Source of the DNA: Spirochaetia bacterium
Lineage (GTDB): Bacteria > Spirochaetota > Spirochaetia > UBA9216
Assembly (NCBI GenBank): GCA_963677925.2
Contig: CAXXYH010000003.1
Span: 1,152,001-1,216,000, forward strand
DNA length: 64,000 nt
Direction of reading: 5' to 3'
The notes under the pieces were generated by a model, which made no database searches, had not been told where the DNA came from, and saw only the letters and a list, made by a program, of their open reading frames with translations. Shown here one piece after another: positions 1 through 64,000 of this stretch. Position 1 is the stretch's first letter; each line of letters starts with the position of its first letter. The position numbers were made by a program, and so were the translations under genes.

Positions 1-909
1 TGATGAAACAAGTGAGGAGGAATCAATACGGCCCTGAGCCAGAAGTTCCAGGCTTTCCGGGATTTCTGTTGTATAGATCATCGAGCCTTTAATGGTAAGT
101 TCTTTTCTTACAATTTTTACAGTTGATACCGGATATTCAAGCGCAGGCAGACCGAGTGTTACAATCACGGCACCGGGGGCTGCAAGTTCAATGCATTCAT
201 TCAGTCCTGCAGGAGATCCGGTGGTTTCGAATATAACATCAAATTCTCCCTGATGTGAATAAAGCTCATCACTGTCGCCGAAAACACGTGCGGCTCCCAT
301 GCTCCTCGCAAGTTCAAGCCTTGAATCCAATAGATCGCTGCTTGTAATATTATCACTGTATGCCTTGGCAGTCTGAAGACAGAGCTGACCAATTACTCCG
401 GCACCCAGAACAAGAACCCTGTCTGCTTTTTTTATTCCGGCTTTCTTGATTCCATGGAGACAAACGGCAAGAGGTTCAGCAAAAACCGCAACCTCATCCG
501 GCATTTCCTCAGGAACCTGAAATACCGCCGATGCGGGAACTACCGCATATTCCGCAAATACACCGTCAATATCCACACCGAGCCGGATTTTACTGCTGCA
601 GATATTTGTAAGCCCCTTCCTGCACATTTCACAGACACCGCAGAAATAATTCGGGTGTATGGTAACCCGCTGCCCCGGGTGCAGATGTCTGACATTATTT
701 CCTGCCGCATCGATAAGACCTACAGCCTCATGACCGGGAATCAGAGGGAAGGGAGCTTCAAGCTTTCCATGAAACATGGAGTTATCGGATCCGCAGATTC
801 CGCCGAGTTTTACCTGAACGCGAACTTCATCAGGTCCGGGAACAGGAACCTGAACATCATTTACTTCTATATTACCAATTGCTTTTATAACAGCAGCTTT
901 CATTTTCAT
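1..909 (-). CDS. Zinc-dependent medium-chain alcohol/polyol dehydrogenase (partial, runs off window start)
   Basis: Own translation (absent from ORF track): MKMKAAVIK...GICGSD...PLIPGHEAVG...CGVCEMCRKGLTNIC; the 3' part read near position 1 is in the same frame. Start may be 903. Confidence 0.9.
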   Translation of the reverse strand, partial: MKMKAAVIKAIGNIEVNDVQVPVPGPDEVRVQVKLGGICGSDNSMFHGKLEAPFPLIPGHEAVGLIDAAGNNVRHLHPGQRVTIHPNYFCGVCEMCRKGLTNICSSKIRLGVDIDGVFAEYAVVPASAVFQVPEEMPDEVAVFAEPLAVCLHGIKKAGIKKADRVLVLGAGVIGQLCLQTAKAYSDNITSSDLLDSRLELARSMGAARVFGDSDELYSHQGEFDVIFETTGSPAGLNECIELAAPGAVIVTLGLPALEYPVSTVKIVRKELTIKGSMIYTTEIPESLELLAQGRIDSSSLVSS

Positions 910-938
910 ATCCTTCAACGTTGCAACAGGGTATTAGT

Positions 939-1859
939 TTAGACACTGAAAATCAAGCCCGCATGTCTGGATCTCTGCCGGATTGCATAAAACTCACTTA
1001 TAATCCCGGCCATTTCCGGGCATCGAAGATAACCGTAGGATTTATGAGGATTTCTCTCACCTTCAAATTCATAGTTATTCCGGATAAGCGTATCCTGAGG
1101 TTGTATCCCGTGACGGTTCGGCAGAAAATCATCATTAAGAATATAATTAATTGCAACACGGTCCTTGAAATCTGCCAGATTATACCAATTCCGTATAATA
1201 TTATCAGGCGTTCTTAAAACAGGATCTGTCCCCGGATATTCTGAAATAAGCTTGCTTTTAACTACAGGATTACCAAGCGGTGATCCTATGGTAACCAGTG
1301 TATCAATCTTAACATCGGGCACCCATCTGGTAAGAACATCCCAGGCAATTATTGACCCCATTGAATGAGCAACCAGCATAATTTTCTTTCTCCGGTTTTT
1401 TCTAATGCAGTCAGCCAGCCTTCCGCAAATTTCATCACGTTTTCTGTAATCCTTTTCGTTGAAGTAGGCATCAAGATCCTTAAGGAAATGACGTATTATA
1501 AAATCTGTAATTCTCGAGAAATTGGGAGAACCGTCGTCCTCAATAAAAATCTTTTCGAGCTGTTCGTTGAGCATTTTTCTGAACCCTGGATTTTGATCAC
1601 GTATTTCTGTAACCGAATATGCCCCGCCCCCCCGAACATAGGGTTCTTTTAAAAATAATTCACTGCCTTTATCTGTAATATTCGGGTCTAAAGCATTCGG
1701 ATGCAGCAGTGAGGCCCAGTAAACCATGCTGAAATTAATAAATCTGTACCGTAAGGAATCACCCAGACCCTCTATGACAGAAGCCTTCCACCACTGCTCA
1801 AGCTGGCGGTACGGGGGTTTGTTTCCCAGACCATGGATTCCTATGATTATTCTGGACAT
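939..1859 (-). CDS. Alpha/beta-hydrolase fold protein
   Basis: IHGLG oxyanion motif, AHSMG nucleophile elbow, TIGSPL, C-terminal PHKSYGYL. Confidence 0.75.
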   Translation of the reverse strand: MSRIIIGIHGLGNKPPYRQLEQWWKASVIEGLGDSLRYRFINFSMVYWASLLHPNALDPNITDKGSELFLKEPYVRGGGAYSVTEIRDQNPGFRKMLNEQLEKIFIEDDGSPNFSRITDFIIRHFLKDLDAYFNEKDYRKRDEICGRLADCIRKNRRKKIMLVAHSMGSIIAWDVLTRWVPDVKIDTLVTIGSPLGNPVVKSKLISEYPGTDPVLRTPDNIIRNWYNLADFKDRVAINYILNDDFLPNRHGIQPQDTLIRNNYEFEGERNPHKSYGYLRCPEMAGIISEFYAIRQRSRHAGLIFSV

Positions 1860-1994
1860 TTTTGGAGTACCCTCACTTTATAATATCTGTAAACCAGTGA
1901 TGCTATATTGCAATAAAGCTGAAGGTTTTCACAAGACTTTTTAGAGGATATCGGCCCTTTTTAATCATTTATAGGCATCAGATATCAGAGCATT

Positions 1995-3059
1995 TCAAAA
2001 ATCAGCCATAACCCGGTTCTTTCCGGATTCCTTCCCACGGTACAAAAGGGCATCGACACGCTCAAACAGTGATTTCTGCGTATCTCCCTCTCTGCAGTGA
2101 GACACACCGAAAGTAACAGTGACATCAATTGCTGTCTCTGAGCATTGAATCGGTAATGAAACAACCTGCTTCCTGATTCGTTCCATGGTATCAACGGCCT
2201 GCTCTGCAGTAGTATTCTTCAGAATAAAAATAAATTCCTCACCGCCCCATCTTCCGATAAAATCATAGTTTCTTACACAGCTTCGGAAGCGTGCTGCCAT
2301 TTCGGTGAGTACCTCGTCACCGCACTGATGACCGTAAGTATCGTTTACTTTTTTAAAATTATCCAGATCTCCCAGGGCAACAGCCACACCCGTTGCTCCA
2401 TCTTTTGAGGAACATAAAAGTATTCTGGAAAGTTCATCCTCTACACTCCTTCTGTTGGGAAGCTCTGTTAAAGTATCGGTGTTTGCCATATGTACTACCC
2501 GGCCGTGATACTGTTTCAGTTCAGATTCTACATCTTTTAATGCCAGATGATAACGGTAGAAACTCAATGAAAGAACTGTAAACGCTGCAATGATGTTAAG
2601 CTCACGAAATACCATACGATGAGCAGCAGGAATTTCATAAAGTGAATTTCCATTTCCGAAAAATACCAGAATCAGAACGTAAAAAATGAGTATGGAAAAA
2701 CTGATGATCAGGCCGTGATTTCGTTTTATACTTGCGCTTGCCGAAATCAGAACATTAACAACAAGAAGATAATGATGTATACCGACTGAAATTCCCATAA
2801 AATAAACCATACCCGGAATATCAATGAGGAATGTTGCCAACCCCATGGTTACAGCAGCTGTAAACAATTCCAGTCTGGCAAGCATAAGGGCAGCACCGAA
2901 AAGCAGGATAATTCCCAGACTGAAATATAATGGAATTAAAAAACCCATCACCATATAGTAAAAAGTATACGGAAGGGTGAATAGCATCGCCATAAAATAG
3001 ATTGTTGACTGGTAGGTATAGACAGGGTCAAAGCGTTTTGACGATGTATCGTTGTTCAT
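1995..3059 (-). CDS. Membrane-bound diguanylate cyclase (GGDEF domain)
   Basis: Hydrophobic N-terminal helices; DTLTELPNRR, DLDNFKKVNDTYGH, RWGGEEF. ATG 3059 preferred over TTG 3089. Confidence 0.92.
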   Translation of the reverse strand: MNNDTSSKRFDPVYTYQSTIYFMAMLFTLPYTFYYMVMGFLIPLYFSLGIILLFGAALMLARLELFTAAVTMGLATFLIDIPGMVYFMGISVGIHHYLLVVNVLISASASIKRNHGLIISFSILIFYVLILVFFGNGNSLYEIPAAHRMVFRELNIIAAFTVLSLSFYRYHLALKDVESELKQYHGRVVHMANTDTLTELPNRRSVEDELSRILLCSSKDGATGVAVALGDLDNFKKVNDTYGHQCGDEVLTEMAARFRSCVRNYDFIGRWGGEEFIFILKNTTAEQAVDTMERIRKQVVSLPIQCSETAIDVTVTFGVSHCREGDTQKSLFERVDALLYRGKESGKNRVMADF

Positions 3060-3247
3060 AATTAAATTATATGAACTGAACAGCGGCAATCAAACCTTGA
3101 ATCAGTAAATTTACGCTTTTATTACTATTTGCATTCTGCTGTAAAGCAGAAGAAATTATAGCTGAGCACAGGCGGTTTCATAGCTCAGGCGGACCTGCCT
3201 GAGCACAGCTGTTAAATGCAATAATCAGATATGATCTTTGGATTAGA

Positions 3248-4168
3248 TTAAGCAAAATATGATTTTGCTATCTCCGCACCCACACGGGCATTATTGAAAA
3301 CAAGTTCAATGTTTGTATTAAGTGAAGCCTTTCCGGTTATTGTCTTAATTGCATCAAGCAGAAAGGGCGTTGCATCTTTCCCTGATATGCCCTTTGCGTC
3401 CATATCTGCAAGAGCCTTTTCTATTGCGCTGTCAATTGTCTTTTTATCTGCTTCAAATTCTTCGGGTACCGGGTTTGCTACAACCATACCGCCCTTGAGT
3501 CCGAGCTCTCTTTTTACACGGAACATGTCGGCAATATCCTTTGCGCTGTCGCAGGAAATCTCAACAGGGTATCCGCTGTCACGGGTAAAAAATGCAGGGA
3601 ACTTCGTTGTGCCGTAACCGACAACCGGAACACCGTATGTCTCAAGGTATTCAAGTGTGAGACCGATATCGAGTATTGATTTTGCCCCTGCGCAGACTAC
3701 TGCAACAGAGGTATTGGCCAGTTCCTGAAGGTCGGCCGATACATCAAAGGTCTTTTCAGCACCGCGGTGAACTCCGCCGATCCCGCCTGTAACAAAAACA
3801 GGAATACCTGCGAGGTCGGATATGATCATAGTTGCGGCTACAGTGGTAGCTCCGCAGAGTTTTTGTGAAACAACCCAGGGGATATCCCTTCTGCTGACTT
3901 TCAGAATATCACTGCTGTTTCCAAGTCTTTCTAGCTCATCATCCTCAAGCCCTACGGTGAGCACACCATCAAGAATGGCTATAGTTGCGGGGATAACGCC
4001 TCTGTCACGTACGATCTTTTCAACCTTCAATGCTGTTTCAACATTATCCGGATACGGCATACCGTGAGATATAATAGTTGATTCAAGACTGAGGACTGGT
4101 TTGCCCTCTGCCAGAGCCTGTTTAACTTCGTCCTTGATTTTTATATAGCTGCTGAAATTCTTTTCCAT
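3248..4168 (-). CDS. psuG: Pseudouridine-5'-phosphate glycosidase
   Basis: LESTIISHGMPYP, KVSRRD, TGGIGGVHRG, SADLQEL, GAKSILD motifs. Confidence 0.95.
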   Translation of the reverse strand: MEKNFSSYIKIKDEVKQALAEGKPVLSLESTIISHGMPYPDNVETALKVEKIVRDRGVIPATIAILDGVLTVGLEDDELERLGNSSDILKVSRRDIPWVVSQKLCGATTVAATMIISDLAGIPVFVTGGIGGVHRGAEKTFDVSADLQELANTSVAVVCAGAKSILDIGLTLEYLETYGVPVVGYGTTKFPAFFTRDSGYPVEISCDSAKDIADMFRVKRELGLKGGMVVANPVPEEFEADKKTIDSAIEKALADMDAKGISGKDATPFLLDAIKTITGKASLNTNIELVFNNARVGAEIAKSYFA

Positions 4169-4185
4169 TTGTCTGTAAACTCCTG

Positions 4186-5277
4186 TTATTCGATTATTTC
4201 CAGTATTTTTTCAGTTGATAGCGACGGATTAACTGTTTCATTGCACAGAACCGTCAAGGCTGATGCGGCTGATGCAAATTTGACTTTTTGATGCACGTTC
4301 ATGTCATTCAATGAACTATAAACCAGACCGGCCATAAACGCGTCACCGGCACCGTTGGAATTCGCCATTTTATAAGGATCCCTGCTGTAGAAACCGATTC
4401 CGTCTTCGGAACCGTAGCAGGTTCCCTTCACACCTCTGTTTATATAAACCTCACTGATACCAGCTGAAACAAGGCGACCGGCGGCTGCCTCAAAATCAGA
4501 ATCCGATTCAATTTTAATTCCGCTTATTATCTCAGCCTCATACCTGTTGCAGGTAAGGGTATGAATATTATGCAGAAGTCCTGCCAGTTTACCGGCCTTT
4601 GCGGTAGAGACAGGATCTACAAAGAACCTTGTATTACGAAAATTATTCAGAAGGTAATCAAGAACTTCTGCCGAGAGATTAGCTTCAACAACAACGGCAG
4701 AGGCGTTTTCTATCAGATTGTTATTTTTGTTTATATAATCAATATTTATCCGGTTGGTGATATCCATGTCAGACAGGGCAAGAACCATTTCACCTGCCTC
4801 GTCCTGGATTGACAGATAAATGGAACTGCGGCCATCATCAATAACCTTAACAGCATCCATATCTATTTTAAGTGTTCTGCAGTCAGCGAGTATTTTATCT
4901 CCGTAAACATCGCCCCCGACAGCCGATAGCATTTTTACACATACATCAAGCCTTGAAAGGTTTTCAGCAATATTACGCCCTACCCCGCCGAGAGACATTC
5001 TGACGGAACCGGGATTGCTGTCGTTGAATCGCAGGCTATGATCGGGAAATCCTGAGATATCTATATTTGCACCGCCAATTACAAGCGCATAGTTCTCTTC
5101 TCCAAGAATATATTTCTTACCCTTTATCATGCCCTTTCTTGTCAGGTTAAGAATATGAACCCCTACGGACGATCTGGTTATGCCAAGCCTGAGGGCAATT
5201 TCCTTCTGACTTATCCATGGATCTGATTTTATCAGCTCAAGGATTTCCTGTTCTCTCTTTGTCACAGCCGCTCCCAT
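4186..5277 (-). CDS. psuK: HTH-fused PfkB-family kinase, probable pseudouridine kinase
   Basis: N-terminal winged HTH (ISQKEIALRLGITRSSV), GGVGRNIAENL, NGAGDAF; directly upstream of psuG. GTG at 5265 after GGAG is an alternative start. Confidence 0.85.
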   Translation of the reverse strand: MGAAVTKREQEILELIKSDPWISQKEIALRLGITRSSVGVHILNLTRKGMIKGKKYILGEENYALVIGGANIDISGFPDHSLRFNDSNPGSVRMSLGGVGRNIAENLSRLDVCVKMLSAVGGDVYGDKILADCRTLKIDMDAVKVIDDGRSSIYLSIQDEAGEMVLALSDMDITNRINIDYINKNNNLIENASAVVVEANLSAEVLDYLLNNFRNTRFFVDPVSTAKAGKLAGLLHNIHTLTCNRYEAEIISGIKIESDSDFEAAAGRLVSAGISEVYINRGVKGTCYGSEDGIGFYSRDPYKMANSNGAGDAFMAGLVYSSLNDMNVHQKVKFASAASALTVLCNETVNPSLSTEKILEIIE

Positions 5278-5371: not shown

Positions 5372-5393
5372 GTCCAGAAATATATTTCTGGAC
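5372..5393. promoter_or_regulatory. Perfect 22-bp palindrome, candidate operator (copy 1)
   Basis: GTCCAGAAATATATTTCTGGAC is its own reverse complement; 59 bp upstream of the lipoprotein ATG; identical copy at 7353. Confidence 0.75.
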
Positions 5394-7352: not shown

Positions 7353-7374
7353 GTCCAGAAATATATTTCTGGAC
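7353..7374. promoter_or_regulatory. Perfect 22-bp palindrome, candidate operator (copy 2)
   Basis: Identical to 5372-5393, same 59-bp distance to the ATG. Confidence 0.75.
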
Positions 7375-53773: not shown

Positions 53774-54703
53774 TTATTTTTTTAAATTTCGATGGACTGC
53801 AGCAGCAGTAATGGAATCTGTAACTAGTATATTTATCAGGTTTCCGCGTATAGCACCTGTGATAGCAGAAATTTTCTTTTCACCGCCGGCGATACCAATC
53901 CTGATAGGAATGTTTTTATAACTTTCCAAATCTATCGCAAATACCCGGCCGTTAAGATCACTCTGAATAACATTACCTTTATCATCAAAAAAGTGGGTAC
54001 ACACTTCACCAACTACATTTTTATCTTTTAAAGATTTTTTTTCCTGTTCCGACAGAAAATCTTCCTGTATGAACGAAGATTCCTCGGACATATCACCAAG
54101 GCCGACTACCGCAACAGTACAATTCTTCATTTTGTCATATACCTGAGCAAAAAAACTTTCTTTCAGCATTGAATCTCTGAGCTGCTTATTTTCGACAATA
54201 ATGGGAGCATACATAAAATATGGTGTTGCATCCAGGACTTCTGAAGACTGTCGTACGATGTCATCTGAATTTACATTTGACTCCCTGGCATTCAAACCGC
54301 CTACCAGTTGTGTAACAATCAGGTTCTTTTTATCAGATTTTTCTAAATTAGCTACAGCTGAAGAAAGGGCTCTGCCCCTGGAAAAACCAATAATATCATT
54401 ATCATTAATAATCCTGTCCAGATAAGCTGCAGCAGCAAGTCCGAGTGAGTTGTTTATGTCCTCGTCACAATTTAGAATTATTGCTTCGTTTAGACCCGAG
54501 CATGTCTCGAATTCAGTTTCATATTCAATATTTCGATCTTCAATATCCTGAATTACAATTTTAACAATACCTTTATCTAAACAATATTTTAATATCCGAT
54601 TAACTCTTTGTCTGGATGTCAGCATTTTCTTGGCAATTTCATTCTGAGTCATGCCTTTCCTGTAATAATAATGAGCAACCTTGATATATTCGTTAAGATT
54701 CAT
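53774..54703 (-). CDS. SorC/LsrR-family sugar-binding transcriptional regulator
   Basis: YYYRKGMTQNEIAKK..SRQRVNR HTH; QLVGG, VGEVC, AGGEKK, LVTD. Confidence 0.93.
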   Translation of the reverse strand: MNLNEYIKVAHYYYRKGMTQNEIAKKMLTSRQRVNRILKYCLDKGIVKIVIQDIEDRNIEYETEFETCSGLNEAIILNCDEDINNSLGLAAAAYLDRIINDNDIIGFSRGRALSSAVANLEKSDKKNLIVTQLVGGLNARESNVNSDDIVRQSSEVLDATPYFMYAPIIVENKQLRDSMLKESFFAQVYDKMKNCTVAVVGLGDMSEESSFIQEDFLSEQEKKSLKDKNVVGEVCTHFFDDKGNVIQSDLNGRVFAIDLESYKNIPIRIGIAGGEKKISAITGAIRGNLINILVTDSITAAAVHRNLKK

Positions 54704-54819
54704 AAATGTTCCTACCAGATTATACAATATCATTAATTTATTTTGTAAACTATATAAAATTATGTACTGTTGGGGAACGGAGTTGATGACGGTTCTTAAA
54801 TTATCAGCGCTATTGAATT

Positions 54820-54846
54820 TATAGGCTGATTTCTTACAGCCGATAA
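54820..54846 (+). promoter_or_regulatory. Sigma-28 (FliA)-type promoter
   Basis: TATA-N15-GCCGATAA versus consensus TAAA-N15-GCCGATAA. Confidence 0.7.
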
Positions 54847-54925
54847 GAACTTCTTCAATGTATAAATTAACTTTCTCTGTACTTTCCGACTGTCTATGGA
54901 TAAATTTAATATAAGGAGGAACATT

Positions 54926-55069
54926 ATGGAAATTGAACCTGTAGATCCTTCGACACCACCGCCGGAAAAGCCTGCCGAACAGCCGCTCCCGCCTCCGGAA
55001 GAAACAACCCCGGAAGCAGAGGTTATCGAGGACGATAAACTCGGAGAAAACGTAGATCTGCTTTCATAA
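54926..55069 (+). CDS. 47-aa Pro/Glu-rich small protein (not in ORF track)
   Basis: AAGGAGGA RBS then MEIEPVDPSTPPPEKPAEQPLPPPEETTPEAEVIEDDKLGENVDLLS*. Confidence 0.75.
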   Translation: MEIEPVDPSTPPPEKPAEQPLPPPEETTPEAEVIEDDKLGENVDLLS

Positions 55070-55280
55070 TATCAATCAGCATCCTGAGCAGTAATATGAG
55101 TTGGAGATTCTTGAACCACGGATATAGATGGTAGAGATATGTGGCCATACGGATAGACACGGACTGCGTTAAACCACATAGTCTGACTCAAACTAGCAAC
55201 CGTGAAGCGATAGAAGATAGATTAGATTTATAAGACGTCCTTGCCTCCAGAGAGCTTTTTAAGAAAAAAGGAGGCAGGTT

Positions 55281-55696
55281 ATGCTGTTGTATGAAGAATT
55301 ATCAAATAAAATTGTAGGGGCTTTTTTCAGGGTTCATAATGAACTGGGTCCGGGTTTGCTTGAATCATGCTATCATTATTGTTTTGCCTAAAGCAAAACA
55401 ATTAGAAGTTTTCAAAGAAAACTTCACATGCTCTTTACATTGAACTGAAAATCACCGGATTAAATGTTGTCTATAATGCCCCACTTAATGTGCATTACCG
55501 GGGTGAAGTTGTCGGTGAGTTTTTCTCAGACCTTGTGGTTAATAACAATATCATCATTGAAATCAAATCTGTTCAGGCGCTTTCATCTGCGCATGAAGCA
55601 CAGCTAATTAATTATTTACGCATAAGTAAGCTTAAGGTCGGTTATCTTGTTAATTTTCAGGGTTCAAGGGTTGTATTTAAGCGGTTTGTGGTTTGA
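55281..55696 (+). pseudogene. GxxExxY-family protein interrupted by a 50-bp insertion
   Basis: MLLYEELSNKIVGAFFRVHNELGPGLLESCYH, insertion with in-frame TAA, then HALYIELK...DLVV...IIEIKSV...HEAQLINYL...LVNF; deleting 50 bp gives an intact 121-aa ORF. Confidence 0.92.
55377..55426 (+). mobile_element. 50-bp twin-hairpin insertion (copy 1)
   Basis: T-ATTGTTTTGC-ctaaa-GCAAAACAAT-ta-GAAGTTTTC-aaa-GAAAACTTC-A; absent from the paralogous gene at this position. Confidence 0.75.
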
Positions 55697-55745
55697 TAAA
55701 CCGAAGTCAAAGATTAATAGTAATCGTGGTATAATCACGGTATAT

Positions 55746-56396
55746 ATGAAACGTTCAATTAAACATAGTAATATTCCGGAACAAGATTCGATGACTTCAA
55801 AGTTTTATGAAGAGAGGGCATCCATGCTAGCACTTGAGTATGCTGAAGCAGCCCCCGGTTTTACTGAAATCTTTAAAATACTCTTACCTGAAAATTCCGC
55901 AATACTCGATGCAGGCTGCGGGTCCGGGCGTGATCTTGCATCCCTTTCTGAATCCGGTTTTAACGTGACAGGGGCTGACTCTTCATCTGAGATGATAACA
56001 GCAGCAGAGAAGATGTATCCGCAACTCAAAGGCAGACTTAAACAGGCAGTATTACCTCTTCTTACCGGCATAACCGGCAGGTTCGACGGGATTCTATGCT
56101 CCGGAGTTCTTCAGCACATCCAAGATAAATATATACATGAGTGCTTCAGCACATTCAGCAGATTTCTACTACCCGGCGGGATATGTCTTGTAAGTTTTCC
56201 CGTCACCTACCCGGACATCCATCCCCATACAAAGCGTGATATAAATGGAAGGTTATTTATTATCCGCACGGGGGAACATTACAAAGAGTTCGCATCCGTA
56301 TACGGATTGATACTCAAAGAGCAGATTTTCAATCAGGATTCACTCGGGCGACCGGGAACCAGCTGGGGGTTGCATGTTTATCAAAAGAAGGGATAG
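55746..56396 (+). CDS. Class I SAM-dependent methyltransferase
   Basis: ILDAGCGSGRD, FDGILCSGVLQH, LLPGG, DSLGR..W; ATG 55746 or 55791. Confidence 0.9.
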   Translation: MKRSIKHSNIPEQDSMTSKFYEERASMLALEYAEAAPGFTEIFKILLPENSAILDAGCGSGRDLASLSESGFNVTGADSSSEMITAAEKMYPQLKGRLKQAVLPLLTGITGRFDGILCSGVLQHIQDKYIHECFSTFSRFLLPGGICLVSFPVTYPDIHPHTKRDINGRLFIIRTGEHYKEFASVYGLILKEQIFNQDSLGRPGTSWGLHVYQKKG

Positions 56397-56399
56397 AAA

Positions 56400-57500
56400 A
56401 TGAAGTTTGAAGATAGAATCATACTTCCGGAATCAGATCTTTCGATTTCAAAGCTGGTTCAGGCTTTATCCCCTCAATATCTTACAGCAAGCTATAAGCT
56501 GTACTGGCTGCTTGGCATTCTCGACATCATCAAAGACTTTCCATCAGAAAGATCCATAAATATTGAATTTGATGATGTAATTAGAAGAATGATAGCACTC
56601 AGCTGGTACACAATACTTGAATACAGGCTTAATTTCGGAGCATCAGACACACTGGAAAAGGCTGTGCATTATATAGAAAGCAACACTGAACTTAACAGAA
56701 ATAGCTGTAAAAAAGAAATAGTAGAACTTCTTGAAAACTCTGCTGATTCAAAAATAATTGAAATTATACACAGCTTCAGCAAATATGTGCCCTACCGGTT
56801 TCTCACAACCTTCATCCCTAAACTGAACGGCATTCCGGATCATAAAAGAAATTCTGTAATTGAAGAAGCCTCAAAAACCACTCCTGATATTCCTTATGCA
56901 ATTTCAGGTAAAACATGTGTAATGGATCTTAAATGGCTTGAATACCTATATCTGAATAATTCAATAATTAAGGGCTGGGTCCAATACAAACTTGTTTCTT
57001 TTCTTCAGGCTAGAAATCCCAATGTTCCGGCAATAACAGAAAAGTTTGAAGCGCCTCATCAAAGAAACCTTGAAGCAGCACGGAAATACTGGACTGAGTA
57101 TATTTCCTTTAATGATTCAAGAGATATTTTCAGTCATCAGCCAATGAGGGCAACTGAAATAAGCATAGATCATTTTGTACCCTGGAGCTTTGTACTACAT
57201 GACAGAATCTGGAACCTCGCACCCACAAGCCGTGAATTAAACTCCAGTAAAAGCAATCATCTACCTATGTGGGAAAAATATTTCAAGTCATTTGCGGAAC
57301 TGCAGTTCAGGGCATTCAAATGGCATAGTAATAAAACCCCTTCCTCAAAAGTATTGGAAGATTTCATCTTAATAAAACCAGGTATAGCAGGCACTGATAT
57401 AAGCAGAGAATCATTTTTCAGTATTCTGGAAAACACTCTTCAACCGGCTTATCGTATAGCTGCCAATCAAGGTTTTAGTGTTTGGGAAAATAAAGGTTAG
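56400..57500 (+). CDS. HNH endonuclease domain protein
   Basis: SIDHFVPWS..HDRIWNL...NSSKSN; N-terminal TASYKLYWL. Confidence 0.88.
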   Translation: MKFEDRIILPESDLSISKLVQALSPQYLTASYKLYWLLGILDIIKDFPSERSINIEFDDVIRRMIALSWYTILEYRLNFGASDTLEKAVHYIESNTELNRNSCKKEIVELLENSADSKIIEIIHSFSKYVPYRFLTTFIPKLNGIPDHKRNSVIEEASKTTPDIPYAISGKTCVMDLKWLEYLYLNNSIIKGWVQYKLVSFLQARNPNVPAITEKFEAPHQRNLEAARKYWTEYISFNDSRDIFSHQPMRATEISIDHFVPWSFVLHDRIWNLAPTSRELNSSKSNHLPMWEKYFKSFAELQFRAFKWHSNKTPSSKVLEDFILIKPGIAGTDISRESFFSILENTLQPAYRIAANQGFSVWENKG

Positions 57501-57523
57501 CATTATTAAATATATTTATCTTA

Positions 57524-60268
57524 TCATTTACAGATTTCTTTTAATTTACTAACAAGCTTTTCTCTTTCACCACTTTCATTAGTTTTAAATCTTAGTATAG
57601 GTATACCATATATATCTAAAATTCTATCTTTCATTCTATCGCGCTCAGCCTGCCTAGACCCCTTTTTATGAAACTTATACCCATCCACCTCAATAGCGAG
57701 TATAGATTTTTTGCTAATTTTATTGTAAAGCAAGAAATCAAGATGAGTTGAACTATGCATAGCATAATTTTTTTCTTCACTACTTAAGGGCATAGTATCC
57801 CGAATCAACATATTTAATTGCTGATGGCAAATAACATCACAATTTAAATAGTTATTTTCGTTTATTACATCCAAAATTAATGAATACATTAAATTTTCAG
57901 AATCATATTCTGATATTCTTTTTTTATTTTTCAAGTAACTAATACGTTTTTTAGTATATTGCTGATATAAAAGATCAAAAACTGAATAAATAGTACTTTC
58001 ATTCATGCTTAGGTTATTATATTCAATATAGCCTATCAAATCATTTATATTGCTATCTGAAGACAGTTTGTTTCCTGAAGTAACAACACATAGATTCTTT
58101 TTAGCTCTAGAGATCGCAACATTCAATAAGTATGGATTATCAGAAAAATCCGTTACCTTATCATCTACAGAACTGATTATGATAGAATCTTTTTCTCTAC
58201 CCTGGAATTTATGCACAGTCGCAATATCTATCTTAATATCTGAAAAACTTTGTTTTAATGCAGAGACTTGACTTCTGTAAGGGGCTATTATACCTATATC
58301 TTTATTCGGATAATTATTATACGGTAGAATTTCATGCTTAATAACGTCTATTTGTCGTTGATTCATTAAGCCTCTTTGGTGATTTCCAATTACAGTTTTA
58401 TAAACTGAAACCACATTCTCTTCATCATTATCTTTTGTCATTATTAATAACTTTCCATCATAAAATTTTTGATTACAAAAGTTAATTATTTTAGGATGGC
58501 ATCTGTAATGTTCTCGAAGAAGCGTCTCTGGAATATCTGTTATAATTTCACATACAGACTTCAAGAAGCTATTTTCTATAAAATTATAACCAGAGTTTAT
58601 ATTAAAACTATTAAAAATTGAAGAAAGTTTTGATTTTTCACTTTCAGATATTACATTTGGAAGCTGTTTCAAATCGCCAACAATAACAGCATTTTGTGCA
58701 CAGGATAAAGCTAAAGCACCTGTCGCAATATCAACCTGCGAAGCTTCATCCATTATTAGATAATCATATTCTGCACTTGAAGATAAACTACTCCTCGAAG
58801 AGTAGGTGGTACTTAAAACAATTGGGTATTCGTTAATAAAACTCTTTGGATATTTCCATAGGTCCTCCACAGAAAACCTTTTTCTTTGGGATTTCTTTCC
58901 ATACTTTTCAAATAAAAGAGATCTAAGATATTTCATAGACATCTCTGTTAACTCTTTTAATAGTTTTTTTTCATTCCGCATTTCAAGCGCTTTCTTATAT
59001 TTATAGATACTTAAATTAAGTTCATTAATCTTATTTGTATAGAAAAGGAACTGCAGTAGTCTCGAAATTTTATTTATACCATTCTTATAAAATTTCCAAT
59101 TCGCAATTCCATAAATGTAACAACATCTAATTTTAAAATAAAAAGATGGAGATCTACCTTTTTCTGAATACTTTTCACATTTATGTAGTAATTCAAATAA
59201 AATCTGACTATCAAGAGGTATCTTTACCTTTGTTTCATTTAAAATGGTTCCAGATTCTTTTAAAAATCTTTTAAAATGAGAAAATTCTAAATTTACGTCT
59301 GATAACTTTTGACTATCATAAGCAAGTAACTCATTGAGATGAAAAATTTCATTTAGTTCAGTTGAGCTTTTATGAATTTCCTTAATAAGTTCTCCTCCTC
59401 GAGCCGATTCCAAACCCCAGTCTTTTATCACTGTTGGATATTCACCAGTCTGCCTATTTATGAACTGTGTTTTATTATTTGAATTTCCGAGAGGAGCTAC
59501 AAGAAAATCTAAAAGATATTCAGGAGAAGACAGTTTATCTAAGATATTTTCTATAGCAGAGTTATTATTTGATACAACTTGTACTGTTTTTTCTGAAATT
59601 AGTAGGTTTGCTATTATATTTAAAATCGTTTGTGTTTTTCCAGTACCAGGTGGTCCTTGAATCACACTTATCTGAGAAGATAACGCATTTGTTACTGCTT
59701 TAAATTGACTAGCATTACACCCAAAAGGGAAAATGGGTATATTAAATTTTAGTTTTTTTATTAAAAATTTTTCCGGATTTAAATAAATATTTAATACTTT
59801 GTTTTTTTCTATTGTCTTTATTTTTTCATAATGCTTGGAAAGAATTTTTGTGCCATCTTCAGCTCTAAGACTTACTAAATCTGATATTCTAGTAAGATAA
59901 TTAAGTACACAACTTTGCTTTTCATCATTTAAAATATTTTTAATTATTGAAATATCTTCACCATGGAAATCTACAAAATGCTTATTCTTAAAATAAATAT
60001 GATAATAGGAGAACTGCTTTCCATCGTTAAAGACATACACTGCTTCAATATCTTTAAGTTCCTTACCAAAGTGTTTAAATTGGTAGTTATCTGGATTTAA
60101 AATAATAGGATTCCTAAGCCAATTCACATGTTCTGCTCTATATGTATAAGCTTTACCCTCCTTAAATTTTATTATAAATTTTGATTTTTCTGGAAGATAA
60201 TTACAAAATAAGACTTCTGGTGTAACTATTCTTCCCTTTGCTATAATCATATTTTGTCTTAAATCCAT
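57524..60268 (-). CDS. SF1 (DNA2/Upf1-like) helicase with C-terminal DUF2726/Vsr-like nuclease domain
   Basis: QGPPGTGKT, DEASQ, VGDLKQL, EHYRCHP, HKFQGRE, NVAISRAK; HLDF...IEVDG..FH...RDRMKD. Confidence 0.9.
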   Translation of the reverse strand: MDLRQNMIIAKGRIVTPEVLFCNYLPEKSKFIIKFKEGKAYTYRAEHVNWLRNPIILNPDNYQFKHFGKELKDIEAVYVFNDGKQFSYYHIYFKNKHFVDFHGEDISIIKNILNDEKQSCVLNYLTRISDLVSLRAEDGTKILSKHYEKIKTIEKNKVLNIYLNPEKFLIKKLKFNIPIFPFGCNASQFKAVTNALSSQISVIQGPPGTGKTQTILNIIANLLISEKTVQVVSNNNSAIENILDKLSSPEYLLDFLVAPLGNSNNKTQFINRQTGEYPTVIKDWGLESARGGELIKEIHKSSTELNEIFHLNELLAYDSQKLSDVNLEFSHFKRFLKESGTILNETKVKIPLDSQILFELLHKCEKYSEKGRSPSFYFKIRCCYIYGIANWKFYKNGINKISRLLQFLFYTNKINELNLSIYKYKKALEMRNEKKLLKELTEMSMKYLRSLLFEKYGKKSQRKRFSVEDLWKYPKSFINEYPIVLSTTYSSRSSLSSSAEYDYLIMDEASQVDIATGALALSCAQNAVIVGDLKQLPNVISESEKSKLSSIFNSFNINSGYNFIENSFLKSVCEIITDIPETLLREHYRCHPKIINFCNQKFYDGKLLIMTKDNDEENVVSVYKTVIGNHQRGLMNQRQIDVIKHEILPYNNYPNKDIGIIAPYRSQVSALKQSFSDIKIDIATVHKFQGREKDSIIISSVDDKVTDFSDNPYLLNVAISRAKKNLCVVTSGNKLSSDSNINDLIGYIEYNNLSMNESTIYSVFDLLYQQYTKKRISYLKNKKRISEYDSENLMYSLILDVINENNYLNCDVICHQQLNMLIRDTMPLSSEEKNYAMHSSTHLDFLLYNKISKKSILAIEVDGYKFHKKGSRQAERDRMKDRILDIYGIPILRFKTNESGEREKLVSKLKEICK

Positions 60269-60278
60269 CGTACTTCTT

Positions 60279-63200
60279 CTAACCAACACCTAATTTGACA
60301 GAATCTTTCCAAAGCACAGGCGGAAGTGGATGCTCTAAGCGCCAGGTTATGCTCATCGGTTGACTACCGTAATAGGAATCGAAATTTACTAACCCTAGAT
60401 TAATAAACCCCATAGCTCGACCATATTCATCCTCAGATTGCTCTCGAACAAAAAGGACTATCTTTTTCCCATTTTTACTTTGTTCAATATATGATAAGCC
60501 CTTGCCCTTTTCAGGCCTAGCGGAGTTCTGAGTCTGCCAATGAAATAGAACATCATTGATTGCGTAATCATGGTACAGAGTTGTAGGTGAAAATTTCTTC
60601 TCTGTCTTTTGCAAAGTTACAAAAAGCAGCTCGCAATTAAGAGATTTAATTTCAACAGAACCTTCTCGACTGCTTGATTTTTTACTGAAAGAATTTTCAC
60701 CAAAAGCCGCAAGAATTTCATCTCTTGTATACCTTGAATGGAGTTTTATTGCTATTGGAAATCCCAGATCAAGAGGCATTTCATAAACTTCAAGTTTATC
60801 CAGAATATTATCTATTACATCTACACATTCGTTTCGAAGGAGCTCATCTCTTCTTATAGCTGATAGCGATTCCTTTAAATTTCTCATTCCAATAAGTGCT
60901 CCAGGTTTCTGCCAAAAATCATAATGGACCATCATAGCCATTTGATTCTCTTCTTCTGATGATGTATCTCAGTGCCCAGTCATGAAAAAATCTTTGAGAA
61001 AAAGGAGGTATGAAACCGAGGTGCTTTGTAATAACCTTTTAGACAATCCTTTAAATATGGCTTGTTCAATTTCACGATCTAAGAGATCAGAAGAAAGTCC
61101 TGCTTCAATACAAAGCCTATTCCAACCCCCTCCACCATCAATTTTGATTTTATAAATATCTTCTATGGAAACTTGAGGATTGTGTATGAGAAAATTTCGA
61201 AGTGATAATTCAACTGAAGAATGTTGATTATATACCTGTATCCAAGAAATCAGCTTGTTACGATTTACAATCGCATTTTTTATATTCCGAAGAATGATTT
61301 CTTTAGCCTGTTTTTGTAACAATATTGAACATCCCAACGGTAGATGGGGAAAATTGTCTTCAATTTCATCAGTTATTGAATAATGTGATTTCCCAACAAG
61401 TGCCCGGAATTTTTGTGAAAAATCATATTCAGCATGAGCATTCCCAACAAAATCAAGAACGGTTAATGAATCCTTTCCTTGTGATAAACGCAAACCTCTA
61501 CCTAATTGTTGAAGAAATATTGTAAGACTTTCAGTTGGTCGCAAAAACAATACGGTGTCTATCTCTGGAATATCTACTCCTTCATTAAAAATATCTACGA
61601 CACAGAGAATATTTATTTCTCCCTTTGCCAACTGATCACGAAGCCTCACCCTTTCATCAGAATTATTACTTGTTAGTACGGAAGCTCTTATACCCTTCAA
61701 CAAGAATTTTTCAGCCATATATTTTGCATGTTCTTGTGTAACACAAAAGGCTAATGCTTTGATTCGATTAATATCATCAATTAAATCAAACATTGTTCTT
61801 ATTATATGACCAACTCGTTGATCATTAGCCATATAAATCCCCGTTAACTCCGAAGGCAGATAACGTCCCTTTACCCACGCCACATTGGACAAATCCACAG
61901 TATCATCAATTCCGAAATACTGAAAAGGACATAAATACCCATGATTGATAGCTTCTGGTAAACGAAGCTCAGCAGCAATTACATTACAGAAATCTGACCT
62001 TATATCAGTGCCATCATTTCGTTCAGGCGTTGCTGTTAAACCAAGTAAAATTTTGGGCTTAAAGAAATTGATAATATTACGATAGCTATCAGCTGCAATA
62101 TGATGAACCTCATCTACAATTATATAATCATAAAAATCAGGCTCAATTTCTAAGTGATCAATTTTACTACTCAACATTTGTACGGAGACAAATAAATGAC
62201 GATAATGCTCTGGTTTAGAATTTCCGACCCAGAGCTCACCAAATTGATGTGAACGCAGTATCATCTGAAAAGTAAAAAGGGATTGTCTTAGGATTTCCTC
62301 TCTGTGCGCTATAAATAATAATTTGGTTGCTGGATTTTCTTTATATATAGATCTGAAATCGAAAGCTGAAATAACGGTTTTGCCAGTACCAGTGGCAGCA
62401 ACTACCAAATTTCTGTATCTGTTGTGAACTGTTCTTTCAACCAATAATCTCTGTAAAATTTCTTTCTGATAAGCATGTGGTTCAATATCAAAAAAATGCT
62501 GTTGGTTCTCAAAGTCATTATTAGATTTTTTTTCATTTTTAAGCGCCTTCATTAGACGCTCTTTATCATTTATATCTTTTACATTGTAAATCTCAAAATC
62601 GCTTGAAGCCCAATAAGTTTCAAAAGTGGATTTGAATTTTTCAATTATGTGAGGAATTTCCTGGGTTGTTATCTTTAAATTCCATTCTAGCCCACTTGTT
62701 AAGGCTGCATGAGAAAGATTAGACGAACCAATATAACCAGTATGATAACCTGACTTCCTTCGAAATAGATAAGCTTTTGCATGCAAACGCTCTCTTTCTG
62801 TATTATAACTTAAGCGTATTTCTGTATTAGGTAATGCTGATAAAAAATCGACAGCTTTCTGGTCAGTTGCCCCCATATACGAAGTGGTAATAATTTTTAA
62901 TTTTGTTCCTTTACTAGTTGCCTCTTTAAGAGTATCAATAAATATTCGGATTCCTGTCCATTTAATAAAAGATACCAACCACCAAATTTCATCCGAAGAT
63001 AAAATTTCCCGTCTTAGCTCTGATTCTAAAGATAATCCAACATTACTACCAGTAAATAACTCGCTTTGAACTAAACCTGTCTTGGGTGTTATCTTTTCAA
63101 GATATTTTTTAAAATCTGCTGCTATCGGATTTTTAATTTCTAATAAACCTGAAAGTATATCGCCAGTAGTCACTAAAATATTTTCTGATATTTCAACATT

Positions 63201-63449
63201 TTTCAAATAGTCAGAAAGCCATCTTATTATCGAATTTGATAATTCAAGTTGATTCAAGAGTCTGTCATCGTTATTTGGAAATAATTCAAGCGCAGTATGG
63301 ATAACTTTTGATAAAAATCTGGTTAAATATTCAGAGGCTTCCGCACGATCAAGAACTTTTTTTTCAATATAATATTGCTCATTGCTATTATTTAAACGTT
63401 CTTGAAGTAATTCCGTAATTAGCTTTTCATAGATACCTGATTTTAACAA
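60279..63449 (-). pseudogene. PLD nuclease-SF2 helicase-DUF3427 protein (SauUSI-like type IV restriction enzyme) with one in-frame TGA
   Basis: LHAKAY...GSSNLS, ATGTGKT, DEVHH, LTATPER, QQLGRGLR; ORFs 60969-63449 and 60279-60941 share a frame, joined by TGA-DTSSEEENQ; C-part has YHDYAI...FHWQTQN. Confidence 0.88.
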
Positions 63450-63550
63450 TTTTTGATCCTTTATAAATTACTTCTAAAACATTATCGATTGTTCTATTTT
63501 ATCTTTAAATTCGAGTGGAATACAGAAAAAGATATAATTTTATTATATTT

Positions 63551-63919
63551 TCACACTACAAACCGTTTCCACACAGCCTTTTCACCCATAAAATTAACCA
63601 GATAACCCAGCCTGCAGCCTGAAATATGCAGATAATTAAGCAGTTGTGCTTCATGAATTGAAGCAAGCGATTTCACTGCCTTTATTTCTATTAAAATCTT
63701 ATTTTCAACAACCAAATCTGCATAATACTCACCAACCTGATGCCCCTGTAACTGACATTAAACGGAGCATTGTAACAAACCGATAGCCCCTGGGATTTTA
63801 GTTCAAAGTACAATGCATTATGGTAACAGCTTTCAAGCAGCCCCGGCCCCAGTTCATTGGGCACACTTATACATGCACCCACAATTTTATTTGATAATTC
63901 TTTTATAGAGTTTCTTCAC
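63551..63919 (-). pseudogene. GxxExxY-family protein, frameshifted
   Basis: ELSNKIVGA..NELGPGLLESCYHNAL...ADLVVENKILIEIKAV...HEAQLLNYL...KRFVV*; +1 at the A-run 63901-63904 and -1 at the G-run 63743-63746. Confidence 0.9.
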
Positions 63920-63969
63920 TGACAGTTTTCACCGAAAACTGTCAAATCTTTTGTCTTTGACAAAAGATT
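63920..63969 (-). mobile_element. 50-bp twin-hairpin insertion (copy 2)
   Basis: Minus strand AATCTTTTGTC-aaa-GACAAAAGATT-TGACAGTTTTC-ggt-GAAAACTGTCA between GAGG RBS and start of GxxExxY copy 2. Confidence 0.75.
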
Positions 63970-64000
63970 CAGCCTCACTGTTTTTGTTTAAACAGGCAGG

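Follow-up and report, generated by a model that had tools for sequence, protein, structure and literature searches.

Between the Shine-Dalgarno (SD) sequence and the body of a GxxExxY gene, close to the end of the window (the whole stretch of 64,000 nt that was analysed), lie 50 nt that form two abutting hairpins. This arrangement raises the question of what the twin hairpin is, how it came to lie there and what it does to the gene behind it. An earlier note had read it as one of two independent insertions into one gene family, which would uncouple the ribosome binding site from the start and silence translation. The insertion reading is right in kind, while a recent, silencing event is not supported by the sequence comparisons. 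With about even confidence we propose that the twin is an old, conserved and tolerated copy of a repeat, which probably acts as a folded spacer or attenuator at translation initiation and is not a knock-out.

Anatomy of the twin hairpin and its host gene

The twin and its surroundings comprise the following features.

63970..64000, minus strand: leader, 3′ part, truncated at the window end; a hairpin in whose outer stem an upstream AGCCU is paired with the SD sequence GAGG (63976-63973), directly abutted by the twin
63945..63969, minus strand: hairpin A, the 5′ hairpin on the gene strand; 11-bp perfect stem, 3-nt loop, in-frame TTG codons inside
63920..63944, minus strand: hairpin B; 11-bp perfect stem, 3-nt loop, core GTTTTC-NNN-GAAAAC, which is conserved family-wide
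63916..63918, minus strand: in-frame TGA, lying in the reading frame that links twin and gene body; TGT in the paralog c3 and TTA in the sister species
63551..63915, minus strand: body of GxxExxY copy 2 (c2), PD-(D/E)XK, TIGR04256/PF13366; pseudogene with stop codon at 63553-63551

A repeat search of the window returned the arms 63920-63930/63934-63944 and 63945-63955/63959-63969, each of 11 nt and 100% complementary, without a spacer between the two hairpins (63920-63944 and 63945-63969). The twin described in the earlier note is thus confirmed. Each 25-mer occurs a single time in the window when the loop is written as N and up to 3 mismatches are allowed (0 of 100 shuffles). Perfect hairpins with a stem of at least 10 bp and a loop of 3-5 nt are present at three sites in the 64 kb, namely the two of the twin and 55378-55402 in copy 1. 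On the minus strand the order is cctgcctgtttaaacaaaaacagtgaggctg, hairpin A, hairpin B, gtgaagaaactctataaaagaattatcaaat, and the immediate flanks are gtgaggctg before and gtgaagaaactctat after the twin. The borders carry no direct repeat and the ends show neither terminal inverted repeats nor a target-site duplication, which agrees with the clean boundaries claimed before. A contig of sequencing run X1, possibly from the same sample, spans 55283-64000 with 0 differences to the window.

The position of the twin after the SD sequence was borne out, and the gene was reassigned to the minus strand. The GTG directly 3′ of the twin, taken earlier for the start, is no working start because its frame meets a TAA after 10 codons; the frame of the c2 body extends back through the twin. 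The body scores 79.4 and 52 bits in two frames, above the curated GxxExxY cut-off of 35, and carries a frameshift by loss of 1 nt in the G run 63747-63743. Since the frame is interrupted by both the TGA and this frameshift, each confirmed by the X1 contig with 0 differences, c2 is a pseudogene irrespective of the twin and lacks the intact reading frame expected of a GxxExxY/PDDEXK_3 gene.

The genome (4 contigs, 5.04 Mb) contains five GxxExxY (TIGR04256) loci, c1 to c5. Two of them, c4 and c5, are intact with SD-ATG leaders. The paralog c3 (C3:1535282-1535623) has an intact frame and scores 132.4 bits to PF13366 (cut-off 22). Copy 1 (c1) lies in the window in inverted orientation to c2.

55240..55278, plus strand: leader hairpin of copy 1, in which CCUUGCCUCC pairs with the SD sequence GGAGGCAGG and sequesters it (predicted; -18.8 kcal/mol, z -3.1)
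55281..55696, plus strand: GxxExxY copy 1, with a canonical SD-ATG leader without a twin; the coding part is interrupted by a second twin
55377..55426, plus strand: 50-nt twin in copy 1, located after the codons for CYH; the frame is shifted and a stop follows 5 codons on

As reported previously, c1 lacks an insert at the leader site and c2 lacks one at the CYH site. The insert of c1 is a different 50-nt twin and is the only lesion of this gene; no lesions were found in c3 or in the homolog of the sister species (G001:C5).

The 8 kb between c1 (plus) and c2 (minus), 55647-63449, look like a defence island encoding a methyltransferase, an HNH_4 protein, an SF1 helicase with DUF2726, a DUF3427 protein and a PLD plus ResIII helicase. 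Run X2, which comes from another study and keeps synteny as far as 55126, covers this block only in fragments at identities of at least 90%. Elsewhere in the window, a perfect palindrome with 12-nt arms (GTCCAGAAATAT/ATATTTCTGGAC) occurs twice, 2 kb apart, at 5372-5393 and 7353-7374.

Ancestry, selection and predicted folding of the leader twin

Genome-wide, 348 perfect hairpins with stems of at least 9 bp include 13 abutting pairs, one of which is a twin in the leader of c3 (C3:1535646-1535695), 320 kb from c2. It occupies the same site as in c2 and has identical stems and different loops. In the sister species of the same genus (G001), the twin precedes a gene with a c1-like body, and this body is free of the c1 insert. 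The same arrangement was found at the syntenic c1 locus of X2, which may represent the same organism as G001. The X2 contig follows the window from 54001 to 55126, continues with the reverse strand of 63992-63881 (the c2-type leader with its twin) and then with 55316-55376; in place of the 50-nt c1 insert it has one A, and runs on to 55698. Its four differences to 63920-63969 are all loop letters.

Comparison of c2, c3 and G001:C5 revealed 0 of 44 stem letters changed in all three pairs, while 5, 4 and 2 of the 6 loop letters and 7, 12 and 14 of the 60 nt downstream of the twin differ. In the c2 and c3 leaders, differences fall on 1 of 66 paired and 11 of 44 unpaired positions. The three genes have also lost the old ATG, which now reads AAG or TAG, and have in common one extra A before the ELSNK codons. 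This places the bodies of c3 and G001:C5 in one frame with TTG codons of the twin. A common origin of the c2 and c3 twins is likely, given that they have the site and the remodelled 5′ end in common; a later transfer of the module, as took place in the sister species, could also have produced the similarity.

Substitution rates were calculated from exons joined by script, with an N placed at the c2 frameshift. The pair c2-c3 gave dS 0.92, dN 0.14 and dN/dS 0.15, and c1 against G001:C5 gave dS 0.22 and dN/dS 0.19. Nucleotide parsimony with three outgroups assigned 15 synonymous and 12 non-synonymous changes to the c2 branch and 22 and 17 to the c3 branch, with 9 changes ambiguous. These counts, resting on approx. 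77 synonymous and 265 non-synonymous sites, correspond to a dN/dS of about 0.22 on each twin-bearing lineage. Such values point to purifying selection on both lineages for most of their history, and the low ratio on both branches implies that the death of c2 was recent. If the twin was already present in the common ancestor of c2 and c3, it did not silence the gene.

Traced from the TTG codons of the twin, the frames of c3 and G001:C5 stay open up to the stop codon. In c3 the in-frame TTGs are located 9 nt after GAGG in the 5′ arm of hairpin A, in the loop of A and at the junction of A and B. Translation from the first TTG would yield a protein of 137 aa without internal stop and with PF13366 at residues 21-132; an identical gene call of 137 aa is present for this genome in the protein database. 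When the N-terminal extension encoded by the twin was used as a protein query, this entry and one partial match with E 1.1 were the only results. The TTG start and the extension are thus suggested by one open frame in closely related sequences. For annotation, c3-type genes should be called from the TTG within the twin, and c1 and c2 as pseudogenes.

Folding of the c2 leader (L005:1835-1960, minus strand) predicted a structure of -39.4 kcal/mol with a z-score of -5.0. The predicted structure has the SD hairpin, A and B as abutting units; its energies range from -37 to -41 kcal/mol, with z-scores between -4.9 and -6.6, and none of 200 shuffles was as stable. The junction TTG of c3 is 27 nt away from the SD sequence in linear distance, which would shrink to a few nucleotides if hairpin A folds. 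Sequence and predicted fold of both c3 and G001:C5 would fit an SD sequence, a stable hairpin and an in-frame start brought near by folding.

The proposed course of events is as follows. The repeat would have entered a GxxExxY nuclease cassette without target duplication, directly after the SD-sequestering hairpin and approx. 3 nt before the old ATG. This event would be old, with the twin, the decayed ATG (AAG or TAG) and the extra A forming a 5′ module common to c2, c3 and the gene of the sister species, and the module would also have moved between paralogs by recombination. It would have been kept with invariant stems and free loops in genes that stayed under purifying selection, and the twin would most likely serve at the site of translation initiation, either as a spacer made compact by folding or as an attenuator. 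An in-frame TTG would then be used for the restart of translation, be it the one inside A, at a distance of 9 nt from the SD sequence, or the one at the A/B junction once A is folded; T4 genes 38 and 25 have split ribosome-binding sites of this kind. Only later would c2 have died from its TGA and frameshift. Constraint at the DNA level or arm-to-arm correction could preserve the stems without any translational role.

It is improbable, in our estimate, that a tiny mobile palindrome inserted recently and independently, separated the ribosome binding site from the start, switched the gene off and left it to decay. In favor of such an event, 31 of the 36 leaders compared have the typical GxxExxY arrangement, an SD sequence 5-8 nt before the ATG and no twin, the old ATG has decayed in all three twin-bearing copies of this genus, and c2 and two genes of another genus (C39 and C18 of G006) are damaged; the frame-breaking twin of copy 1, absent from the ortholog, fits as well. 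Against it stand the occurrence of the twin in c2, c3 and the sister species with diverged loops, the dN/dS of approx. 0.15-0.22 on both twin-bearing branches, the absence of a stop from the 137 codons of c3, and stems without a single change in 44 letters despite a c2-c3 synonymous divergence of 0.53 per site. Silencing by the twin, as inferred in the earlier note, is hence not supported, given purifying selection in the c2 and c3 lineages and the frames of c3 and G001:C5, which are intact through the twin. From the idea of independent insertions two parts stand: the twin is an add-on to the leader, carried by 5 of the 44 GxxExxY loci of the family, and copy 1 harbors a different member of the repeat at a different site. 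A recent date is not supported, since the twin is shared with c3 and the sister species. The note had held that hairpins constant in the leaders of intact, expressed orthologs would speak against it; the twin comes close to this, as c3 and G001:C5 read as intact by sequence.

Comparison of 200 nt upstream of the genes at 36 family loci revealed that most GxxExxY genes have a common structured leader of approx. 150 nt. Its head reads CCTCC...TTTTCATTTTAC, and it further contains a long hairpin (GTCAAGG...CCTTGAC), in which compensatory changes are seen, and another hairpin close to the SD sequence. Rfam has no family that matches the leaders at 10 loci. Hairpins beside the GxxExxY genes of G007 match TD-1/TD-2 below threshold. 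Short units of the CACGGA(T/C) type are repeated upstream of GxxExxY leaders (55106-55180 for c1; G000:C3:1535700-1535920 for c3; beyond the window end for c2).

The dispersed repeat family and its sites in GxxExxY genes

The 50-bp twin is a copy of a lineage-specific dispersed repeat of approx. 50 nt, composed of a variable hairpin A, typically ATTG...CAAT, and an abutting conserved hairpin B, (T)GA(A/CA)GTTTTC-NNN-GAAAAC(T/TG)TC(A). The core AGTTTTC-NNN-GAAAACT was detected in 33 of 401 genomes of the class (reversed-pattern control: 0-1 per genome). In the present genome (G000) it has 3 sites, all in GxxExxY loci, and it occurs in 6 of the 10 other genomes of the family. A second hairpin abuts on the same side at 12 of 15 core sites of the family; three core sites (L088, L089 and L095) were dropped. 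In an alignment of 13 twins, which were picked by hairpin B and not by A, both sides of helix A change in 10 of 11 pairs, and 86.7% of its cells are paired compared to 73.6% in shuffles, none of 500 reaching the observed value.

A model of two abutting stem-loops with the B core and a covarying A (R1) assigned 56.4 bits to the c2 twin (E 5e-8 per genome), which is a member of the training set. At E≤1 it returned 8 rows in G000, seven on the three GxxExxY twins and the eighth in a tRNA-Gln/tRNA-Glu spacer. At E<0.01 in 11 family genomes, 36 rows represent 34 distinct sites, of which 7 are in GxxExxY loci, all training rows, and 21 further distinct sites are outside the training set; these counts are rough because 150 of approx. 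800-4800 first-look candidates per genome were scored. The 44 GxxExxY loci make up approx. 26 kb of 45 Mb, or about 0.06% of the DNA. The check for a preference for GxxExxY genes proposed earlier thus revealed a strong one, including all 3 strong R1 hits of this genome, which is not exclusive.

Other abutting perfect hairpins of this genome do not qualify as members, with R1 scores below 17 bits except for C4:400293 (20.9 bits). Such pairs follow fusA-like and groEL-like genes, separate convergent genes, or are located in a flagellin-like leader and the 16S-tRNA spacer. In the 16S-tRNA spacers, three identical abutting hairpins with 9-bp stems (G000:C4:1260729-1260773, 2169615-2169659 and 2197603-2197647) score below 17 bits with R1. 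A 23-letter hairpin-B pattern matched 10 stretches in a collection of genome contigs, at least 3 of them from Spirochaetales/Spirochaetia MAG contigs. The c2-type pattern matched two metagenome stretches in unrelated contexts, one of which is an A+B-like twin after a short ORF.

GxxExxY-linked twins are found in the c2-type leader, in the leaders of C39 and C18 of G006, and as inserts after CYH in c1 and G006:C39. Including the VGE insert described below, three sites in the gene are affected: between SD and start, between CYH and N, and between VGE and Y, the latter two in conserved protein motifs. Comparison of the flanks of 13 twin copies displayed no shared direct repeat, flanking motif or end-to-end inverted repeat. 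Landing on ATG-like triplets was considered and rejected, as an ATG follows within 1-3 nt after the c1, G006 C39 YH and flagellar-promoter copies and not after others.

The distribution outside GxxExxY genes bears on a further alternative, which we regard as doubtful: the repeat might be a non-mobile module used by the host, for example to signal processing, stability or termination, or as a palindrome to which a protein binds. It would be native to the spacers of tRNA and rRNA operons, and the leader would have gained it through recombination. Consistent with this view, each of the two rRNA operons of G007 (L094, L096) has a B-type twin between its spacer tRNA and 23S, both species of this genus have a twin in the tRNA-Gln/tRNA-Glu spacer, and a tRNA-Arg/tRNA-Ser spacer contains a further one. 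Some copies come after tRNAs. Moreover, A precedes B on the sense strand at 11 of 12 sites with a readable direction of transcription, and no Y1-type transposase emerged as a candidate. The Y1_Tnp profile (PF01797) had 0 matches in the twin-rich genomes G000, G001, G006, G007 and G009 and matches only in G002, G004 and G005; at a genome completeness of 81-99.6% this falls short of proving absence. A native module is difficult to reconcile with presence and absence at orthologous sites, namely the copy-1 YH site and the region upstream of a flagellar promoter, where G006 has a twin, G004 one hairpin and G007 and G010 none. Furthermore, a copy inside a coding sequence destroys the frame, and the same site was hit in non-sister genes. 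Finally, rRNA operons are usually homogenised, and in the two operons of G007 hairpin B is the same while hairpin A differs.

The stems themselves are almost purely Watson-Crick: 453 scored pairs of 22 family members include 418 Watson-Crick, 5 G-U and 10 A-C pairs, after 17 of 39 rows had been dropped as opposite-strand or lower-scoring overlaps. They thus bear no strand-specific RNA signature. Such purity would be expected if the element were a DNA palindrome or if one arm corrected the other, and not for an RNA made from one strand.

The inserts within coding sequences were compared between relatives. The c1 insert is missing from the orthologous gene of a relative, and a gene of another genus, G006:C39, carries an insert with identical stems at the identical codon. 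The inserts of c1 and G006:C39 differ in 9 of 50 letters, all unpaired, and the flanks in 14 and 23 of 60. A second, distinct insert of 55 nt, which starts with TGA and also forms two hairpins, follows VGE and splits the name-giving motif in two distant paralogs of one genome, G006:C39 (L039) and G006:C18 (L037). These two copies differ in 8 of 55 letters including two compensated base pairs (flanks: 31 and 25 of 60). The leader twins of C39 and C18 sit in genes without a usable start or with an in-frame stop, and further lesions are present in 3 of the 6 insert-bearing genes (c2, C39 and C18).

In a quick maximum-likelihood tree of 36 family proteins, c1 groups with G001:C5 (support 97), G006:C18 with the insert-free G001:C6 (support 98), and the nearest neighbors of G006:C39 are two genes without an insert; the c4/c5 clade, with 14 genes, is entirely insert-free. 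Since the CYH and VGE inserts occur in non-sister genes, they reflect either several gains at one site, precise loss on many occasions or recombination in patches. This last process demonstrably occurs, as G001:C5 combines a c2-like 5′ module with a c1-like body.

A class-level relative (G016:C439, L041, minus strand) has an unrelated two-hairpin insert one codon from the CYH site, with 94 nt in place of 6 in homologs. Partial GxxExxY copies in G001:C7, G010:C304, G007:24789, G005:C101, G023:C614, G030:C44, G027:C98 and G016:C565 were examined as hairpin inserts and proved to be truncations or deletions instead. Break points of truncated copies in relatives cluster near profile positions 26-33, 53-60 and 82-88, the first two of which coincide with the two coding insert sites.

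An element without transposase and target duplication that lands at three GxxExxY sites and in tRNA and rRNA spacers might be made, moved or recognised by the GxxExxY nuclease itself, an idea that we consider speculative and rather unlikely. If true, it would describe a self-limiting selfish system, in which insertion into the leader attenuates the copies and insertion at a coding site kills them, and the invariant Watson-Crick stems and variable loops would reflect a DNA-hairpin intermediate. A nuclease that handles hairpins would also offer a first testable substrate for GxxExxY proteins.

Very little probability remains for an intron-like or bypassed element that is removed from the mRNA or hopped by ribosomes, leaving genes such as copy 1 functional: insert lengths of 50, 50 and 55 nt at fixed positions in conserved motifs, exon parts open in their own frames, the dN/dS of c1 and the conservation of the CYH insert in two genera agree with it, but the take-off and landing codons mismatch in G006 C39 (CAT...AAT), the CAT/CAT pair of c1 gives a protein one residue short, the take-off codon at the YH site is not followed by a stop, there is no in-frame restart codon behind the c1 insert, half of the insert-bearing genes have other lesions, and a recent insertion explains the low c1 ratio equally well. 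T4 gene 60 is translated by bypass over a 50-nt gap; a programmed bypass of this type was rejected for the copy-1-type insert from codons, stop and product length, and does not come into question for the leader copy. The c1 sequence has no single frameshift window either, because the 0-frame meets its stop at nt 13-15 of the insert, before the downstream frame becomes open, which is only after nt 29. Thus bypass, single frameshifting and internal restart are all rejected as a rescue of copy 1 on reading the sequence.

Comparison with known systems

Short hairpin repeats are common in bacteria, and the twin element is of this kind. Unusually, it is tied to a single family of small nucleases, which are functionally uncharacterised. 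Also unusual are its recurrence at the same codon in non-sister genes from different genera and its letter-perfect stems in the midst of diverging loops and a diverging gene.

REP, BIME and REPIN elements are short, dispersed and mostly intergenic non-coding palindromes, often paired and with covarying arms, that carry a GTAG-type conserved head and are linked to RAYT (Y1 HUH) transposases. The twin resembles them in size, dispersal, frequent pairing, covarying arms and lack of coding capacity. It differs in having no GTAG-type head, in the missing Y1_Tnp match in five twin-rich genomes and in its fixed sites within a gene family. Bacterial MITEs such as Correia/NEMIS and RUP are small non-autonomous insertions of variable presence in leaders and genes. 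The twin is likewise small, variably present between relatives and found in both places. In contrast to MITEs, it has neither terminal inverted repeats nor a target-site duplication, and 50 nt are well below the usual MITE size.

The literature on GxxExxY, PDDEXK_3/PF13366/TIGR04256 and Treponema palindromic repeats, supplements aside, yielded no description of the twin element; in a PD-(D/E)XK survey PF13366 is listed as 'Unknown' (PMC3424549). An Rfam cmscan of 63780-64000 at E≤10 gave 15 rows without a TD hit, the best being noise with E 0.26-0.62. The nearest known relatives, matched weakly, appear to be TD-1 and TD-2 (RF03155, RF03162, clan CL00124), multi-copy motifs of Treponema denticola whose function is given as unknown (PMC1950547; Weinberg et al. 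2007). The same paper reports them in T. denticola only and not inside genes (PMC1950547). Like the twin, they are multi-copy spirochaete elements of modular covarying hairpins. The TD-2 consensus contains two abutting hairpins, the first of which, GAGUUUUgcc...ggcAAAACUC, is similar to hairpin B and to some of the A hairpins. In another genus of the class, repeats that have the AGTTTTC-NNN-GAAAACT core match TD-1/TD-2 with E 4e-6 to 0.015, and one twin of the family (L092) matches TD-2 at E 0.083. All these matches remain below the gathering score, and the c2 twin is without the TD 5′ hairpin and spacer.

The closest parallel for the proposed folded spacer is provided by T4 genes 38 and 25, where a hairpin lies between the SD sequence and the start and its folding reduces the spacing from 22 to 5 and from 27 to 11 nt, as described in PMC3014915. 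According to this review the split sites were examined by mutation and probing (PMC3014915). A stable hairpin between SD and start is likewise predicted for the twin leader. In contrast to T4, the arrangement here is deduced from sequence, the start would be a TTG and a second hairpin follows it. If the leader copy indeed acts as a folded spacer, it would represent a natural insertion between SD and start that was survived by a shift to a new start codon.
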